Under the pieces are notes generated by a model. It was not told where the DNA came from, made no database searches, and saw only the letters and a list, made by a program, of their open reading frames with translations. From an uncultured Acidobacteriota bacterium (lineage in GTDB: Bacteria > Acidobacteriota > Blastocatellia > RBC074), in assembly GCA_963796275.1 (NCBI GenBank), contig CAWCKY010000006.1:352001-416000 (forward strand): a stretch of DNA of 64,000 nt, written 5' to 3'. This document shows, one piece after another, positions 35,351-44,377 of the stretch. The position numbers and the translations under genes are program-made. The stretch's first letter is position 1; each line of letters begins with the position of its first letter.

Positions 35351-36556
<1,206 letters not shown>

Positions 36557-36860
36557 TGTTTTAAGTTCCAGTCCTCCCGAAAAGATTATTGCTGAAAATG
36601 AGACCGATCATTATACACAACCCTTCTCCATAAATCGTATGCGGGTTTTAATAATTCTTCTAATGTGTTAATTAATATGGTGCCCCTACCGGTGCCCCCT
36701 ACCTTTGATTGTTCAAAGTGGATCATTTTTAAAAATCGATTAGGAAGCTCTGACATAAAATGCGCAACGAGGTTCCTCATAACCATCCTCATTGCGTGAT
36801 TGCGTCTTATAGCGGCTTAGTGTCCATACCGACCCCCGAATAAGTTAGGGAATAAGAGAC

Positions 36861-37394
36861 ATGGTTACGATTAATGCGAGTTGTACGGCGATATTTGTGT
36901 TTCTGTTTTCGATGATTGCCGGCGGGGGATTTCAAAACGAGGCGAAAGGGCCGGTGATCGATAGCGAAGAGCGATTGATGGTCGATATGATCAACGACTA
37001 TCGCGAAGAGCACGGGCTGGAGCGGCTTCAAACATCTATCGCGCTCACGCGCGCTGCCGACTGGATGACCAACGATATGGGCGCAAACGACATTTTCGGC
37101 CACACTGACAGTTTGGGGCGTGATCCGGGAGCGAGAATCGGTGCTTTCGGTTATAAAAACCACAGTTATCGAGGTGAGAACCTGGCGGCAGGATTCGCTG
37201 ATGCCGCGCGAACTTTCAAGCAATGGAAGGATTCGCCGTCACACAACGCAGCGATGCTCCATCCGAAGTTCAAAGTGATCGGGATCAGCCGCCTGAAGAA
37301 CGATTCCTCGCAATTCAAGTGGTACTGGGCGAGCGATTTCGGGGGGCACATCGATAAGACTTTCGAGGCGCTGCCGAATCAGGCCGGTCAATGA
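36861..37394 (+). CDS. CAP/SCP-domain secreted protein
   Basis: INDYREEHGL, FGHTDSLG, GENLAAG, WKDSPSHNAAML, YWASDFG. Confidence 0.88.
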   Translation: MVTINASCTAIFVFLFSMIAGGGFQNEAKGPVIDSEERLMVDMINDYREEHGLERLQTSIALTRAADWMTNDMGANDIFGHTDSLGRDPGARIGAFGYKNHSYRGENLAAGFADAARTFKQWKDSPSHNAAMLHPKFKVIGISRLKNDSSQFKWYWASDFGGHIDKTFEALPNQAGQ

Positions 37395-37479
37395 GCGATC
37401 GGTGAACAGGCAAGGATCGCGAAGAATCACAAAAAGCAAAAAAACTTTATGTTTCTGTGATTCTCTCGGCGATTTGCGC

Positions 37480-38952
37480 TTAGTACTTCGGCATCGTTCG
37501 ATCCACCTGATCCGCCCATCCCAGGATGCCACCCTTCAGGTTCTTGATCTTCTTGAACCCGGCCTTTTTCAATACTTCATAAGCCTTCGCGCTGCGCCCG
37601 CCCATTTTACAATGAACGACGATGTCATCTTCGGGGTTCAATTCGCTGGCGCGTTCTGCAAATTGGCCGAGTGGGATCAGGCGAGCTCCGTGGTTCTGCA
37701 GATTCGCTATCTGCCATTCGTGTGGTTCGCGCACGTCGATGATCGTCACCTGCTCACCCCGATCCAGCCTGTCCTTCAACTGTGCAGGCGAAATCTCCCA
37801 ATCGGAGCCCTCTGTCGCCTGCTCTTGCTCGGCATGCGGCGTAATGCCGCAGAACTGATCGTAATCGATCAACTCCTTGATCGTCGGGTGCTCGCCGCAG
37901 AGCGGGCATTCGGGATTACGCCGCAGCCTCAGCTCCTTGAACTTCATCTTGAGAGCATCGAAGAGCAGCAGGCGACCGATCAATGGTTCGCCCTGGCCTA
38001 TGATCAGCTTTATCGCTTCGGTCGCCTGAATGACCCCGATGATGCCCGGCAGGATTCCGAGCACTCCGCCTTCCGCGCACGAAGGCACGAGTCCCGGCGG
38101 CGGTGGTTCCGGGTACAGGCAGCGATAGCATGGCCCTCCGCCTTTGGGAAAAAAGACCGATGCCTGCCCGTCGAAGCGGAAAATGGACCCGTAAACATTG
38201 GGCTTGCCCAGCAATACGCTGGCATCGTTCACCAGATAGCGCGTTTGAAAGTTGTCTGTTCCATCGATGACGATGTCGTAATCTTTGATGATATCGAGCG
38301 CATTATCCGATCTAATCGCGAATTCGTAGCCATCGATACGTATGTGCGGGTTGATATCCGATAAGCGGTCAATAGCGGAGCGCAGTTTCGGCCGTCCGAC
38401 ATCTTTCGTGCCGTGTAGTACCTGGCGTTGCAGGTTGCTGTGATCGACGACGTCGAAATCGACGATGCCCAGCCGCCCGACACCAGCCGCGGCCAGGTAC
38501 AGGCCGAGCGGTGAGCCGAGCCCGCCCGCGCCGACGAGCAGAATGCTCGAAGCCTTGAGTTTTCGCTGACCCTCCATCCCGACTTCGGGCATTATCAGGT
38601 GACGGCTGTAACGGGCGATCTCATCTTTATTGAGGTCGGGCAGTGAAGCATCGCGAGCGTATAGTTCGGCTTCGGGCGCCGCGCCTCCCGCGATCGAAGG
38701 GATGATGCTGATATCGTCGCCGTCTTTGATCGGCGTCTCTTCGAGCTGCTTGTAGCGTATATCTTCGTCATTGACGTAGATGTTGACGAAGTTCCTGAGC
38801 TTGCCGTTGGCATCATACAGATGCTTTTTCAATTCGGGAAACTGCGCGGTCAAACTGGTGAGCGCTTGGCCTATGTTGTTTCCCTCGACTTGAACGGTAG
38901 CCTCTCCTCCAACCTGCTGACGGAGCGCCGTTGGAATTGAAATCTTTGGCAT
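37480..38952 (-). CDS. moeB: MoaD/CysO-like ubiquitin-like sulfur carrier fused to MoeB (E1) and rhodanese (MoeZ-type)
   Basis: N-terminal ISIPTALR...NIYVNDEDIR...IIPSIAGG; RYSRHLI, GAGGLGSP, SNLQRQ, CYRC, PSCAEGGV, CPLC; rhodanese HCKMGGRS. Confidence 0.92.
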   Translation of the reverse strand: MPKISIPTALRQQVGGEATVQVEGNNIGQALTSLTAQFPELKKHLYDANGKLRNFVNIYVNDEDIRYKQLEETPIKDGDDISIIPSIAGGAAPEAELYARDASLPDLNKDEIARYSRHLIMPEVGMEGQRKLKASSILLVGAGGLGSPLGLYLAAAGVGRLGIVDFDVVDHSNLQRQVLHGTKDVGRPKLRSAIDRLSDINPHIRIDGYEFAIRSDNALDIIKDYDIVIDGTDNFQTRYLVNDASVLLGKPNVYGSIFRFDGQASVFFPKGGGPCYRCLYPEPPPPGLVPSCAEGGVLGILPGIIGVIQATEAIKLIIGQGEPLIGRLLLFDALKMKFKELRLRRNPECPLCGEHPTIKELIDYDQFCGITPHAEQEQATEGSDWEISPAQLKDRLDRGEQVTIIDVREPHEWQIANLQNHGARLIPLGQFAERASELNPEDDIVVHCKMGGRSAKAYEVLKKAGFKKIKNLKGGILGWADQVDRTMPKY

Positions 38953-39030
38953 AAGTCGTCTCCTCAGAAAATAGTTTCAGTTTTATTGTCGGGCTGTTTC
39001 GCATTGACAACTAAAAACTAAAAACCAAAA

Positions 39031-39244
39031 GTAACCGCTCAGCCTCTTCGCCGCGTTAGCGGCGGTTGAGATTAGCCCTGGGTTTTAACCCACGGAAGGC
39101 TTGCCAGATATTCCCGCGTCGTGTTAGCGACGCAAGAATTCAACCGTCGCTGACGCGACGTGAAAAAAATCTACCGCGTCCGTGGGTTAAAACCCACGGC
39201 TACAATCAACCGCCGCTAACGCGGCGAAGAGGCTGAGCCGTTAC
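39031..39244. repeat. 214-bp REP/MITE-like nested palindromic element
   Basis: Long terminal inverted repeats GTAAC(C/G)GCTCAGCCTCTTCGCCGCGTTAGCGGCGGTTGA; inner palindromes CCGTGGGTTWWAACCCACGG and CGTCGCGTYAGCGACG-like. Confidence 0.88.
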
Positions 39245-39310
39245 GACTAAAAACTAAAAAACTAAAAAACTAAAATCTAAAATTTAAAATCTAAAATTTA
39301 AAATTTAAAA

Positions 39311-39730
39311 TTATACTATCGCTTCTTCATCAAACTGTGAACGATCTCCGCGCAATGACCATACGCGGAGACCCGCGGCTTTTCCATCGCGTACCGATAC
39401 GATCAGATATGACCATTCGGTGAAAGGAGCGTGCTCGAGGTCGAACCCCGACGGCACGGCCGGGTGATCGGGATGCGAATGGTAATAACCCCACACCCCA
39501 AGCCCTCTTTTCGCCGCTTCACGCTCGGCGCGCGCGTAATCGAGCGGATCGATTTCGACGCGATTGTGACGCGAATCCTTGCGAATATTTGCGAGCGGCA
39601 AAACTTCGCGAACCGCCAGCGCGCCGCCCTCTACGACGCCCAGAAGCAGTCCTCCGCATTCCTCCGGATATGTCCGCTCGCCGTGGTTTTTAATAGCTTC
39701 TATGTGGTCGTTGGAGAGTTTGGCTTTCAT
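39311..39730 (-). CDS. JAB/Mov34 (M67) metallopeptidase, Mec/CysO-cysteine peptidase-like
   Basis: YPEECGGLLLG, GYYHSHPDHPAVPSGFD (JAMM HxHx7Sx2D). Confidence 0.93.
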   Translation of the reverse strand: MKAKLSNDHIEAIKNHGERTYPEECGGLLLGVVEGGALAVREVLPLANIRKDSRHNRVEIDPLDYARAEREAAKRGLGVWGYYHSHPDHPAVPSGFDLEHAPFTEWSYLIVSVRDGKAAGLRVWSLRGDRSQFDEEAIV

Positions 39731-39733
39731 CGG

Positions 39734-40669
39734 TCAATCATCCCAAAATTTTTCGGTCAAGTACTTGCTGCCGTCATCGCACAGAACGGTAACAAGCACG
39801 CCTTCGTCGATTCGCTCCGCGATTTTTATAGCCGCGGCGACATTGGCCGCTGCAGAGATGCCCACGAACCATCCTTCGCTTCGCACGAGCTGTTTCGCCA
39901 TTGCGTGAGCTTCTTCGGTTCCGATCGTGACCTGCTCGTCGGCAAATGCCGGATCATAGATGCCGGGTACGATCGCCGTCTCCATATGCTTCAGACCTTC
40001 CAGGCCGTGGAACGGTGAATCGGGCTCCATCGAGATTAACTGCACGCCGGGTTTTAGTTCGCGCAAGCGGCGGCCGGCGCCCATAAACGTCCCGCTAGTT
40101 CCCAGACCCGCGATGAAATGCGTGATGCGGCCATCCGTCTGTTCGAATATCTCCACGCCCGTAGTTTCGTAGTGCGCTCGCCAGTTGGCCGGATTGTTGT
40201 ATTGATCGGGATAAAAATATTTGTCCGGTTCGGCTGCTACGATTTCGCGTACTGCGAGGATTGCGCCGTCCGAGCCGGCGAGCGGGTCGGTCAATATGAG
40301 TTCTGCGCCGTAAGCCCGCAGTATACGCTTGCGCTCCTCGCTGGCGTTCTTCGGAAGACACAGCTTGACGCGGTAGCCGAGAGCGGCGGCGATAATGGCA
40401 TAAGCGATTCCCGTATTACCGCTCGTAGAGTCGATAATGGTTTTGTCCCGGGTGAGCGCCCCAGAGCGCTCGCCCTCGCGTATCATTCGCAGCGCCGGCC
40501 GATCTTTGACCGACCCTCCCGGATTCGCCCACTCAGCTTTGCCATAGATCTCAACTCGAGGGTTCTCAACCAGACGTTGGAGTTTGATCAAAGGCGTGTT
40601 TCCGATTAGGTCGAGTAGGAATGCGGGAGCGCCGTTAGCAGCAACAACAACAGCACTTGGTAGAGGCAT
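39734..40669 (-). CDS. cysM: PLP-dependent cysteine synthase (CysM-type)
   Basis: LIGNTPL, KAEWANPGGSVKDR, STSGNTG, DQYNNPAN, GLGTSGT, GLEGLKHM; start codon uncertain (see findings). Confidence 0.88.
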   Translation of the reverse strand: MPLPSAVVVAANGAPAFLLDLIGNTPLIKLQRLVENPRVEIYGKAEWANPGGSVKDRPALRMIREGERSGALTRDKTIIDSTSGNTGIAYAIIAAALGYRVKLCLPKNASEERKRILRAYGAELILTDPLAGSDGAILAVREIVAAEPDKYFYPDQYNNPANWRAHYETTGVEIFEQTDGRITHFIAGLGTSGTFMGAGRRLRELKPGVQLISMEPDSPFHGLEGLKHMETAIVPGIYDPAFADEQVTIGTEEAHAMAKQLVRSEGWFVGISAAANVAAAIKIAERIDEGVLVTVLCDDGSKYLTEKFWDD

Positions 40670-40736
40670 AACAGATTGAGCTTGCGACTCGGTTCATCAG
40701 TATTTCGATATGCAGTATTCGATCTGCGATAATCAT
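40635..40736 (-). CDS. Poly-cysteine leader peptide (33 aa) overlapping the cysM start
   Basis: Translated by hand: MIIADRILHIEILMNRVASSICYASTKCCCCCC* (TGC TGT TGT TGT TGC TGC TAA), directly downstream of a sigma-70 promoter. Confidence 0.8.
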   Translation of the reverse strand: MIIADRILHIEILMNRVASSICYASTKCCCCCC

Positions 40737-40763
40737 AAATCAAATATAGCTATTACAGAGAGC

Positions 40764-40792
40764 ATCATAGACCAGGTGGGTCGATACTTCAA
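40764..40792 (-). promoter_or_regulatory. Sigma-70 promoter of the cys operon with an overlapping GAC-N7-GTC (Rrf2-like) palindrome
   Basis: Minus strand TTGAAG-N17-TATGAT; the spacer contains GAC-CCACCTG-GTC. Confidence 0.65.
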
Positions 40793-41014
40793 CCATGCAC
40801 CGCGCTGGTGGATTTTGTAGAGTTAACTCGTGTCAGAGGGAACTTATGAAAATATGCAAAGGCCAGCCGAGGGAACGAGGGGTATCGGCTGAACCGCTCG
40901 CATTGCATATCGGGCATATCGGGATGTTGGCGAAAGGCATTAACTATATTTTGGCCCGCTTGCCTTTATGGTCGTCTGAAACGCTCGTTTCAGGATTTCG
41001 GTCTCCCCGAGCGT

Positions 41015-42583
41015 TCAATGTTTCTTGCCATTGAGCTGCAGGCCATATTCGATACTGTCGACAATCGCCTGCCATGTGGCCGCAATTATATTTTCCCCGA
41101 CGCCGACCGTATTCCACGATCTTTCGCCGTCGCTCGTTTCGACATGCACGCGGGTCTTGGCTGCCGTCGCATTCTCCCCATCGAGGATGCGGACCTTGTA
41201 GTCTATCAGATGGAACCTGGATATCTCGGGGTAATGCGGCGCCAGAGCTTTGCGGAGCGCCAGGTCGAGCGCGTGCGCCGGACCTACGCCCAGACTGGCC
41301 GTATGCACCTCTTCTTCGCCGACTCTCAATCGCACGATCGCTTCCGGATCCCCGGAGGAGCCGATCCAGATGCGGTATTCGACCGTTTCGAAGAAATTCC
41401 GGCGTTTGCCGAGTGCGCTCAGGGCCAGCAATTGGAACGAAGCCTCGGCATCTTCGAACTGATAGCCCTCGTGCTCCAGCATTTTCAACTGCGTCAACAA
41501 TCGCCGCGCGGCATCGGCGTCCTTCGTGAACTCTTCACCGAGGCCATCGGCCTTGAAGCGGATGTTGCTGACGCCCGATTGATCGCTGATCAGCACGCGC
41601 GTCTCGTTGCCGACTGCTACCGGGTCGATGTGTTCGTAGGTCTCTTTCGCGCGCGCGACAGCCGAGACGTGAATCCCGCCTTTGTGCGCGAAGGCGCTCC
41701 GGCCGACAAACGCCGCCCGTTCGTTCGGTACGAGATTGGCCACCTCGTTGATATAACGGCTCGTATGCGTGAGCAGTTTAAGCTTTCCATCGGGCAGACA
41801 GCGCCGGCCCATCTTCAATTCCAGGTTCGGTATAACTGCGCAGAGGTTCGCATTGCCGCAGCGCTCGCCGTAGCCGTTGATCACTCCCTGAACGTGAGTG
41901 GCGCCCGCTTCTACCGCGGCGAGCGTGTTAGCGACCGCGAGCTCTCCGTCATTGTGGCAATGAATGCCCAGCCGGATCTCAGGAAACCGGGAGCGGACGA
42001 GCATGACCTTTTCGATTATCTGCTCGGGTAAACTGCCGCCATTTGTGTCGCAGAGGATTATCGCCTCGGCGCCTGCCCGCATCGCGGCGTTCAGGGTGTC
42101 GAGCGCGTATTCCGAGTTGGCGCGGAAGCCGTCGAAGAAATGTTCGGCATCGTAAAAGACGCGGCGGCCGCAGGCTTTTAGGTGACTGACCGTATCGGCG
42201 ATCATCCGCAGGTTCTCTTCGAGAGTGGTCTTGAGCGCGATCTCGACGTGAAAGTCCCAGGACTTTCCGAAGATCGTCACAATCGGAGTCTCAGCCGCGA
42301 GCAGGCACTGGACTACGGGATCGTCGGCTGCCATGCCGTTAGCGCGCCGGGTGCTGCCGAAAGCGGCCAATAGCCCTGATTTTAAAGAGACCGATTTTGC
42401 GCGTTCGAAAAATTCTATGTCTTTCGGGTTCGCGCCGGGCCATCCGCCCTCGATATAGGCGATGCCGGTTTCATCGAGCGCGCGCAGAATCTTGATCTTG
42501 TCTTCAACTGTATACGCCAGTCCTTCTCCCTGCGCACCATCGCGCAGTGTCGTATCATAAATTTCTACGAATGGGTCCTTCAT
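41015..42583 (-). CDS. cimA: Citramalate synthase
   Basis: [65 protein letters not shown]; probable ATG at 42583. Confidence 0.92.
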
Positions 42584-42715
42584 AACACTTACGGGAATTG
42601 CTATGCCGCTCAAACACTATGTCGCGTTAGCGGGATTTCCACGGCTAAGTTCATTCCCGATAGCGCGGCCGCTGTGTTCTTTTAGTGAAAGCGGCGAAGC
42701 GGTTGAGCAAATTGT

Positions 42716-43732
<1,017 letters not shown>

Positions 43733-43742
43733 TGAAAATAAC

Positions 43743-43825
43743 TCCTCAGAAATAGTTTTCAGTTTTCAGCTTTCAGTCATCGATCAAGATCGCCCCCAAC
43801 TGAAAACTAGAAACTGAAAACTTTC
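43743..43825. repeat. Heptamer-period (GTTTTCA/TGAAAAC) inverted-repeat intergenic element
   Basis: Tandem 7-mers on both arms; similar elements at 27150-27207, 38960-39310, 44381-44470 and 49561-49685. Confidence 0.7.
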
Positions 43826-43828
43826 ATC

Positions 43829-44377
43829 TTATACTTTCTCGTTAAGTGACACCTGCGAGAAGGTCTCCTCGTTGCCTTTCGGCTGGTAGATTTTACTTGC
43901 TGCAACGCGTGCGATCGCGACCGTTCCTGTGCGGACGACCTCGCGCATACCAATGGGGCGGAGCAGATCGATAAAAGCCTCGACCTTCTCGGCGTTGCCG
44001 GTCAGTTCGACAATAAAAGCATCGGTCGAGACATCTACCACTCGGGCTCGGAATATCTCGACGAGGCTCAGCACCTCTTGCCTTTGCACGCCCTGCGACG
44101 CGTTGACCGTAACCATTACCATCTCTCGCTCGACGTGCGGCCGTTCGGTCAGATCGGTGACCTTGATCACTTTAATGAGCTTGCGCAATTGTTTGATGAT
44201 CTGCTCGATGACGTGATCGTTACCGTGAGTGGTCAAAGTCATCCGCGCGATGCCTTCTTCCGGCGTCGGGCCCACGCAAAGCGTGTCGACCTGATAGCCG
44301 CGCGCGCTGAAGAGGCCCGCAATCCGGGTGAGCATACCGTATTCGTTCTCGACAAGTAGTGAAATTGTATGTCTCAT
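43829..44377 (-). CDS. ilvN: Acetolactate synthase small subunit
   Basis: [44 protein letters not shown]. Confidence 0.95.

Follow-up and report, generated by a model that had tools for sequence, protein, structure and literature searches.

A polycysteine leader nested over the cysM start codon in Acidobacteriota: a candidate sensor of charged tRNA-Cys

We analyzed a stretch of 64,000 nucleotides (nt) from an uncultured Acidobacteriota bacterium (GenBank assembly GCA_963796275.1, contig CAWCKY010000006.1, positions 352,001 to 416,000), referred to here as the window, in which a short open reading frame (ORF) ending in a run of cysteine codons reads across the start codon of cysM, the gene for a cysteine synthase. 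Judged by comparison of homologous loci, this leader ORF, together with its frame and its overlap with cysM, is a real and conserved element under selection. The explanation that we favor, with a probability of roughly two-thirds (0.68), is a Cys-tRNA-sensing leader nested over the cysM start. The sensory part of this explanation, namely, that the leader reads the level of charged tRNA-Cys and acts in cis on the cysM-mec-(cysO-moeZ) operon, is likely when taken by itself. By analogy, the element may be the acidobacterial counterpart of the mycobacterial poly-Cys leader ORFs in a compacted layout.

All features of the leader and cysM locus lie on the minus strand of the window. In its long form, taken from the ORF list, the leader comprises 33 codons (MIIADRILHIEILMNRVASSICYASTKCCCCCC; positions 40736 to 40635) and begins at the first ATG of the predicted transcript (40736 to 40734 by sequence reading). 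As the original prediction stated, it ends in six consecutive Cys codons; the polycysteine class is marked by at least two, usually at the C terminus. A second ATG in the same frame (40697 to 40695, likewise by sequence reading) opens a conserved form of 20 codons (MNRVASSICYASTKCCCCCC; 40697 to 40635) and is located 28 nt ahead of the cysM ATG. Because the leader ATG of relatives also usually sits 28 nt before the cysM ATG, the 20-codon form is probably the homologous leader. The extension from ATG 40736 is particular to the window genome and absent from its relatives, and ATG 40736 itself is paired within a predicted local hairpin.

The cysM ATG (40669 to 40667) lies inside the leader, within TGT TAT GCC, and is in the +1 frame. 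From the in-frame stop on its 5' side as far as the conserved PALP domain, it is the sole ATG, GTG, or TTG, and inspection by eye of the 20 nt 5' of it revealed no GGAGG-like motif; the claim of a lone nested start codon lacking a Shine-Dalgarno sequence was thus borne out. The organism does use Shine-Dalgarno sequences: the 3' end of its 16S rRNA has CCTCC, and Shine-Dalgarno words were counted 5' of 1,669 of 5,588 long ORFs, taken at their first start, versus 560 at a background position. A single Cys codon (TGT; 40673 to 40671) stands immediately 5' of T-ATG, where relatives have between zero and four Cys codons. The six-Cys run TGC TGT TGT TGT TGC TGC (40655 to 40638) starts 14 nt past the A of the cysM ATG. 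In the cysM frame it reads A V V V A A, and the odd N terminus of CysM is, as had been proposed, the +1 reading of the Cys run. The leader stop TAA (40637 to 40635) is located 32 nt past the same A.

Conservation of the overlap and its frame, on which the original prediction depended, was examined in three samples of relatives. The first (41 relatives searched, 30 cysM loci obtained) contained 16 loci, all from the window's own family of soil Acidobacteriota, at which an ORF with a Cys run spans the cysM ATG with the frame relation seen in the window. In the family sample, a cysM orthologue was found in 69 of 87 genomes and 68 loci were read; a leader was scored as overlapped if at least three Cys codons followed the ATG and a stop occurred within +60. 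This arrangement was present at 50 of the 68 loci and in 13 of 15 genera, with 48 of the loci detected by script and two (L065 and L078) by eye. Outside the family it was absent from all 71 cysM loci (11 from the first sample and 60 from a phylum-wide sample). The phylum-wide sample yielded an orthologue in 80 of 301 genomes; one unpublished genome, one contig-edge copy, loci already in hand, and the lowest-scoring rows were left out of the 60 loci fetched. One locus (L002) derives from an unpublished genome (G004), and the conclusions are unchanged without it. The Cys run itself is kept at homologous loci: relatives have 3 to 6 Cys codons in it, and only changes between TGT and TGC occur. Outside the family, short Cys-rich ORFs are instead located upstream of cysM, at 7 of the 60 phylum-wide loci and three or four of the 11 first-sample loci. 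Other families of the same taxonomic class have Cys-rich short ORFs of their own upstream of cysM (L022, L025, L026, L030, L098, L123, L127, and L135), the tails of which are kept within a family (M-CCC...GSPAVAFVS; ...CC-x-GRDRES...).

The anatomy of the overlap was evaluated at the 48 script-detected loci, with positions counted from the A of the cysM ATG. The nearest leader ATG was found at -10 to -34 in 46 loci, and an ATG was present at -28 in 23 loci. Among the five codons before the cysM ATG, eight loci had no Cys codon, 16 had one, 14 had two, eight had three, and two had four. The first Cys codon past the ATG was positioned at +14 to +23 in 44 loci and the last at +26 to +32 in 45 loci; the leader stop fell at +23 to +35 in 38 loci and at +47 to +53 in 10. 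Cys codons flank the cysM ATG, at distances from it that vary less than the distance of the stop. The overlap distance, with the stop at +32 in the window and at +23 to +53 in the 48 relatives, is of the kind seen for nested starts in the phages fr and MS2.

The pattern of substitution bears on which frame is under selection. In alignment A1, the columns of the run are fixed at T and G, and only T/C changes occur, at the third codon position of the leader. Such a change leaves the leader peptide unaltered but exchanges Val and Ala in CysM. Read in the cysM frame, the codons of the run always have T at their synonymous third position, and GTT is a minor Val codon of the genome (19,315 of 113,031 Val codons in long ORFs). 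The leader prefers the rarer Cys codon: TGT occurs 213 times and TGC 66 times in the leaders, and the long ORFs of the genome have 3,910 TGT and 8,223 TGC. The same bias is found in the classical upstream leaders but is weaker (120 TGT to 76 TGC). Since all three tRNA-Cys genes in the genome carry the anticodon GCA, TGT is presumably decoded by G-U wobble. The pattern of fixed and variable columns indicates that selection acts on the Cys codons as read in the leader frame.

The nested ATG shows a constraint of its own. The A, T, and G columns are invariant in alignment A1, and an ATG is present in every overlapped locus. Leader residues over it vary (Y, H, or N, followed by A, V, D, or E), and Tyr is always encoded by TAT, never by TAC. 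The fixity of these three letters beneath variable leader residues argues for selection on the ATG as a start codon. In the stretch from the leader ATG to the cysM ATG, pairwise differences among 21 distinct sequences amounted to 873, 976, and 847 at the three codon positions. The N-terminal peptide of the leader is not conserved among these relatives, and a suggested resemblance to the actinobacterial motif HIDLxRVxSAxC was not supported by this comparison, as the part of the ORF concerned straddles the conserved start. Over the same stretch, the leader frame is open in 21 of 21 sequences, and the cysM frame has a stop in 18 of them.

Three runs of at least six TGY codons were seen in the 9.46-Mb genome, read on both strands, compared with 0.017 expected from base composition: the cysM leader, a leader of sulfite reductase, and a run between unrelated genes. 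The sulfite reductase leader lies outside the window (with its operon at G000 contig C6, approximately 729,675 to 733,620; L031 376 to 4319). It is a short ORF of 49 codons ending in a seven-Cys run (…SCQIACSCCCCCCCR; final residues C S C C C C C C C R), located about 70 nt upstream of the genes for sulfite reductase, ATP sulfurylase, and adenosine 5'-phosphosulfate (APS) kinase, and it is kept in 7 of 10 loci of relatives. This second leader has the classical poly-Cys position, in front of the sulfate-assimilation operon of the window genome. One of the three tRNA-Cys(GCA) genes is located between ATP sulfurylase and APS kinase (L031 3654 to 3726, plus strand), on the same strand as the poly-Cys leader and downstream of it. 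The third run, of seven codons (G000 contig C6 907,439 to 907,459), was rejected as a leader, there being no sulfur gene nearby. Its frame of 13 codons (YCYCYYCCCCCCC) is flanked by an RmlD-like gene and, in convergent orientation, a transglutaminase-like gene, and the run may be a TGY microsatellite. Five-codon Cys runs in C2 and C4 were discarded as leaders, as they are located inside long ORFs.

Three genera have a classical poly-Cys leader together with a 1-Cys peroxiredoxin gene (Pfam AhpC-TSA and 1-cysPrx_C) upstream of cysM. This leader is positioned approximately 750 to 1,100 nt upstream of cysM (L013, L014, L018, L045, L046, L053, L055, L056, L063, and L065 to L083), its tail is conserved (...TGT TGT TGC CGG TAA), and the gene, encoding 211 amino acids (aa), stands just before cysM. 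Expression of a thiol peroxidase appears to be linked to the same Cys sensor. The overlapped leader is intact at 12 of 26 loci with the upstream classical leader and peroxiredoxin gene versus 32 of 35 loci without them, a comparison with few independent lineages behind its counts. The decay of the overlapped leader where a classical one lies upstream suggests that the two are partly redundant and hence act in the same direction.

We propose that, when Cys-tRNA is scarce, leader ribosomes would dwell on the Cys codons and thereby alter the number of initiations at the nested ATG. The output route that we tentatively prefer, as a possibility drawn by analogy, is a coupling to the nested ATG that depends on dwell time and resembles that of the MS2/fr coat and lysis genes. 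With plentiful cysteine, the leader ribosome would pass the start and terminate 32 nt downstream too fast to help, leaving the weak ATG little used. When cysteine is short, the ribosome would be parked on the last Cys codons or on the stop. In Mycobacterium tuberculosis, RNA cleavage some 15 nt 5' of a hungry Cys codon marks the trailing edge of the stalled ribosome (PMC13096801). By this measure, a ribosome held at the final Cys codon (+26 to +32) would have its trailing edge at +11 to +17. Given the usual footprint of the 30S subunit, an initiation complex on the ATG may have its 3' border in this range. The parked ribosome, with its trailing edge about 15 nt before the A-site codon, would abut this border and would hold the start region unfolded or would itself be handed back to the ATG. 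The coupling route draws support from the position of the last Cys codon, which is held at +26 to +32 in 45 of the 48 loci despite a range of +23 to +53 for the stop.

Several points weigh against this explanation. The family cysM loci share kinship, and counts of them overstate the independent support. With a trailing edge about 15 nt back, a ribosome stalled early in the run or on Cys codons before the ATG would cover the ATG, so most stalls should be directly inhibitory by steric cover, and trailing leader ribosomes would queue over the ATG too. The last Cys codon is at +26 in 15 of the 48 loci, where two ribosomes will not fit at the customary spacing of 27 to 30 nt. RNAalifold produced weak consensus hairpins only (-3.2 to -7.2 kcal/mol). 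Folds of individual loci did contain a hairpin enclosing the Cys run, with a stability equal to that of shuffled sequences (mean z of -0.32 versus -0.07 in non-overlapped loci). A ribosome parked with its A site at +29 lowered the predicted start-opening energy by 2.2 kcal/mol, compared with 1.7 kcal/mol at 81 control cysM starts (P = 0.26), and any unfolding effect of a parked ribosome would therefore be generic, not locus-specific. Finally, in Escherichia coli test constructs, coupling weakens sharply as the overlap grows, and one study saw none at -25 nt, according to a review (PMC12548453).

The predicted transcript folded no better than its shuffles (z of -0.12), and a combination of folding, alignment, and terminator search revealed no conserved RNA switch, duplex, or terminator at the overlapped cysM loci. 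Classical attenuation had been said not to fit the locus, and we agree: the locus lacks a terminator, a conserved duplex, and any Shine-Dalgarno sequence that could be masked. We also dropped both a specific hairpin that would unmask the start and an embedded terminator, as the hairpin equaled shuffles and its removal was no more helpful than at control starts. Cleavage at the edge of a stalled ribosome to give a leaderless cysM mRNA was rejected as a general mechanism. Only a run beginning at +14 (7 of 48 loci) would place the cut at -1; for runs beginning at +17 to +23 (37 of 48 loci), it would lie inside or after the ATG.

It is also possible, if rather doubtful, that the sensing ribosome is itself turned into the ribosome that makes CysM. 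A stalled leader ribosome would either drop its short peptidyl-tRNA and re-initiate at the nested ATG as a 70S particle or shift +1 into the cysM frame. Short peptidyl-tRNA chains drop off ribosomes, and we know of no structure-free starvation switch that moves ribosomes between overlapping frames for amino acid biosynthesis. In vitro, a stalled ribosome can have its P-site tRNA displaced by initiator tRNA, after which it moves to a nearby start (PMC12548453).

Starvation-induced +1 frameshifting taken alone is unlikely. Here, a ribosome with an empty A site on a Cys codon would read GUU or GCU onward and yield CysM with a short leader-derived N terminus; a colliding trailing ribosome might help to push it, and the logic would be that of prfB and antizyme. 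The layout on which this proposal was originally based does fit. A short ORF1 runs into a main ORF that lies in the +1 frame relative to it, and the sensor codons fall within the shared stretch. The Cys codons flank the ATG and all lie within the open part of the cysM frame, so that every stall site would be productive. With the ATG mostly covered during starvation, converting leader ribosomes would give the right sign without RNA structure, and the preferred TGT pairs by G-U wobble in the P site. However, the invariant ATG in all overlapped loci and the consistent use of TAT for Tyr are features that a pure frameshift gene does not need. Pairing rules bear out the earlier caveat about poor re-pairing, since tRNA-Cys (GCA) on UGU should be unable to re-pair on GUU, and none of AAG, CGC, CAC, or UGU re-pairs at +1. 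By inspection, the codons before the run (AAG, CGC, CAC, and CCN) are neither conserved nor slippery. Inspection and consensus folding revealed no conserved slippery site, no upstream Shine-Dalgarno-like element, and no conserved downstream or structural stimulator. The TGT bias, moreover, is shared by the non-overlapping classical leaders (120 to 76).

Control of the opposite sign, by which cysteine shortage would lower CysM synthesis, is improbable. It could take two forms: ribosomes finishing the leader would return to the ATG, or stalls on the flanking Cys codons would block it. This is the simplest physical reading, as every Cys codon from -13 to +32 puts a stalled ribosome on or against the ATG. 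In addition, the overlap of 26 to 56 nt is like that of the fr and MS2 coat and lysis genes, where termination activates a nested start (PMC12548453). For an operon of cysteine synthesis, however, such a response would be physiologically backwards. The same genome has a poly-Cys leader in the classical position before its sulfate-assimilation genes, and the decay of the overlapped leader in the three genera with an upstream classical one suggests that both do the same job. Mycobacterial leaders of such a kind induce on cysteine shortage (10.1101/834739).

We give a low probability to control at the transcript level, in which a stalled leader ribosome would alter Rho-dependent termination or RNase attack early in cysM, comparable to mRNA stabilization in tnaC and erm, and the nested ATG would be merely a weak constitutive start. 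The lack of any RNA switch acting on translation is compatible with such control, and in an A/U-rich start region without a Shine-Dalgarno sequence, early cysM RNA may often be ribosome-free. However, no intrinsic terminator was found, and a ribosome parked at +14 to +32 would leave RNA beyond about +45 accessible to Rho. A stall that shields the RNA from RNase, furthermore, would not raise the number of initiations per exposed time.

The idea that the Cys frame has no regulatory function and is a by-product of a hydrophobic, A/V-rich CysM N terminus or of a TGT microsatellite is very improbable: V and A are alike as residues and another Cys-codon run of the genome (C6:907439) lies away from cysteine genes, but the synonymous third position of cysM is fixed in the run while the second position varies, a stop follows soon after the run in 38 of 48 loci in a frame opened by an upstream ATG, the N terminus is not A/V-rich in cysM orthologues without the overlap, and the association with sulfur genes recurs at two other operons.

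A sigma-70-like promoter, TTGAAG-17-TATGAT (40792 to 40764), with 9 of 12 consensus matches, was found directly 5' of the leader, as predicted, and a TTGAAT-17-TATGAT/TATCAT element is present 5' of the leader in most of 16 relatives examined. The predicted -10 box ends 27 nt ahead of ATG 40736 and 66 nt ahead of ATG 40697; by promoter prediction alone, the window transcript does not start with the 5' AUG or GUG of a leaderless mRNA. At loci L017 and L029, the -10 box (TAGAAT and TAGTAT, respectively, after TTGAAT-17) ends 7 nt before the leader ATG, and ribosomes may start the leader of this genus on a leaderless mRNA, as they do in mycobacteria. No terminator-like site was detected on the minus strand between 40300 and 41100, in line with the claim that none separates the leader from the gene.

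The leader is the first cistron before the cysM, JAB, and ThiS-ThiF-rhodanese genes, all on one strand. The product of cysM (40669 to 39734) is a pyridoxal phosphate (PLP)-dependent cysteine synthase of 311 aa (Pfam PALP, 3.7e-69). It scored 346.9 bits against the NCBIfam model cysKM, above the cut-off of 344.15, and 366.6 against the cysM equivalog, under the cut-off of 394.2. Next are a JAB/MPN metalloprotease gene, Mec-like (39730 to 39311; Pfam Prok-JAB, 1.4e-21), and a gene for a CysO-MoeZ-like fusion of a ThiS-like carrier, a ThiF/MoeZ-type adenylyltransferase, and a rhodanese (38952 to 37480; Pfam ThiS, ThiF, and Rhodanese), which matches NCBIfam MoeB/MoeZ models below their equivalog cut-offs. 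By its domains the operon has the composition of CysM-Mec-CysO-MoeZ, with a PALP synthase beside a JAB protease and a ThiS-like carrier with E1/rhodanese. We take this to be the gene set of the CysO-thiocarboxylate cysteine route of M. tuberculosis. A citramalate synthase gene lies upstream. The spacer between the JAB and ThiS-ThiF genes contains a 66-nt inverted repeat (39031 to 39096 and 39179 to 39244), with arms that are 92% complementary and 82 nt apart. Both arms gave sub-threshold matches to Rfam Acido-Lenti-1 (28.2 and 22.8 bits; gathering score, 37). An Rfam scan of positions 36000 to 44000 with an E-value threshold identified no leader or riboswitch family at the locus, the only matches being sub-threshold ones in the mec/thiS spacer.

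The closest known relatives of the acidobacterial leader are the polycysteine leaderless short ORFs of mycobacteria, among them Ms5788A and Rv2334A (Canestrari et al., Mol Microbiol 2020; 10.1101/834739). Both systems have a short ORF ending in a Cys run at the head of a cysteine or sulfur metabolism operon, and both would use ribosome dwell on Cys codons as the sensor, as we propose here for Acidobacteriota. Like the mycobacterial "ribulon," the acidobacterial leaders stand at several operons per genome: cysM, sulfite reductase, and, in relatives, peroxiredoxin. The contrast with upstream poly-Cys ORFs drawn in the original prediction was confirmed, in that the mycobacterial ORF is leaderless, is separated by a 97-nt spacer from the gene that follows, and has a Cys tract that base-pairs to the region of that gene's Shine-Dalgarno sequence (10.1101/834739). 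The acidobacterial leader, unlike the mycobacterial one, belongs to another phylum, has a predicted 5' untranslated region and no detectable conserved duplex, and contains the regulated ATG, without a Shine-Dalgarno sequence, between its Cys codons. Because cysM lacks a Shine-Dalgarno sequence and its start is upstream of the Cys tract, the mycobacterial pairing mechanism cannot apply. The leader principle would thus extend to Acidobacteriota and to at least three operons (cysM; sulfite reductase/ATP sulfurylase/APS kinase; 1-Cys peroxiredoxin), in a layout that the published mechanism cannot explain, with the regulated start within the sensor ORF and between sensor codons. Since stalled ribosomes should cover the start, induction by starvation would need either precise parking beside the start or transfer of ribosomes between frames. 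Either outcome, if true, would provide a compact model of how ribosome traffic regulates initiation without RNA structure.

Adhin and van Duin reportedly characterized the coat-lysis overlap of fr and MS2 in 1990 as a nested start activated by termination. The lysis starts of these phages are nested 38 and 50 nt before the coat stop and are activated by coat translation (PMC12548453). The proposed cysM arrangement is alike in having a nested start that would be weak alone and dependent on ribosomes of the overlapping ORF. It differs in that the upstream ORF of the phages is the full-length coat gene, with no regulatory codons. MS2 also uses a defined inhibitory hairpin, and none was found at the cysM start.

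In prfB (RF2) and antizyme, the main ORF has no start codon of its own and is entered through a slippery P-site codon aided by stimulators. Like ORF1 of these genes, the leader is short and shares an overlap with a +1-frame main ORF, and within the overlap sits a slowly decoded codon that reports on the pathway product. Unlike them, it contains an invariant cysM ATG and has no conserved slippery site or stimulator. A change from TAT to TAC, silent in the leader, destroys the cysM ATG and would separate initiation from frameshifting.

The attenuators trpL, hisL, leuL, and pheL share with the leader a cluster of codons for the pathway amino acid near the leader end and a preference for the rarer codon. 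Here, in contrast, there is no terminator/antiterminator pair and no spacer, and the structural gene starts inside the leader. In full-text literature searches, cysteine-responsive leader ORFs were reported for mycobacteria only; a survey joining Acidobacteria, leader peptide, cysteine, and attenuation is general and does not describe such leaders. Compared with the systems known so far, what is new here is the phylum, the nested layout, and the inapplicability of the published mechanism.

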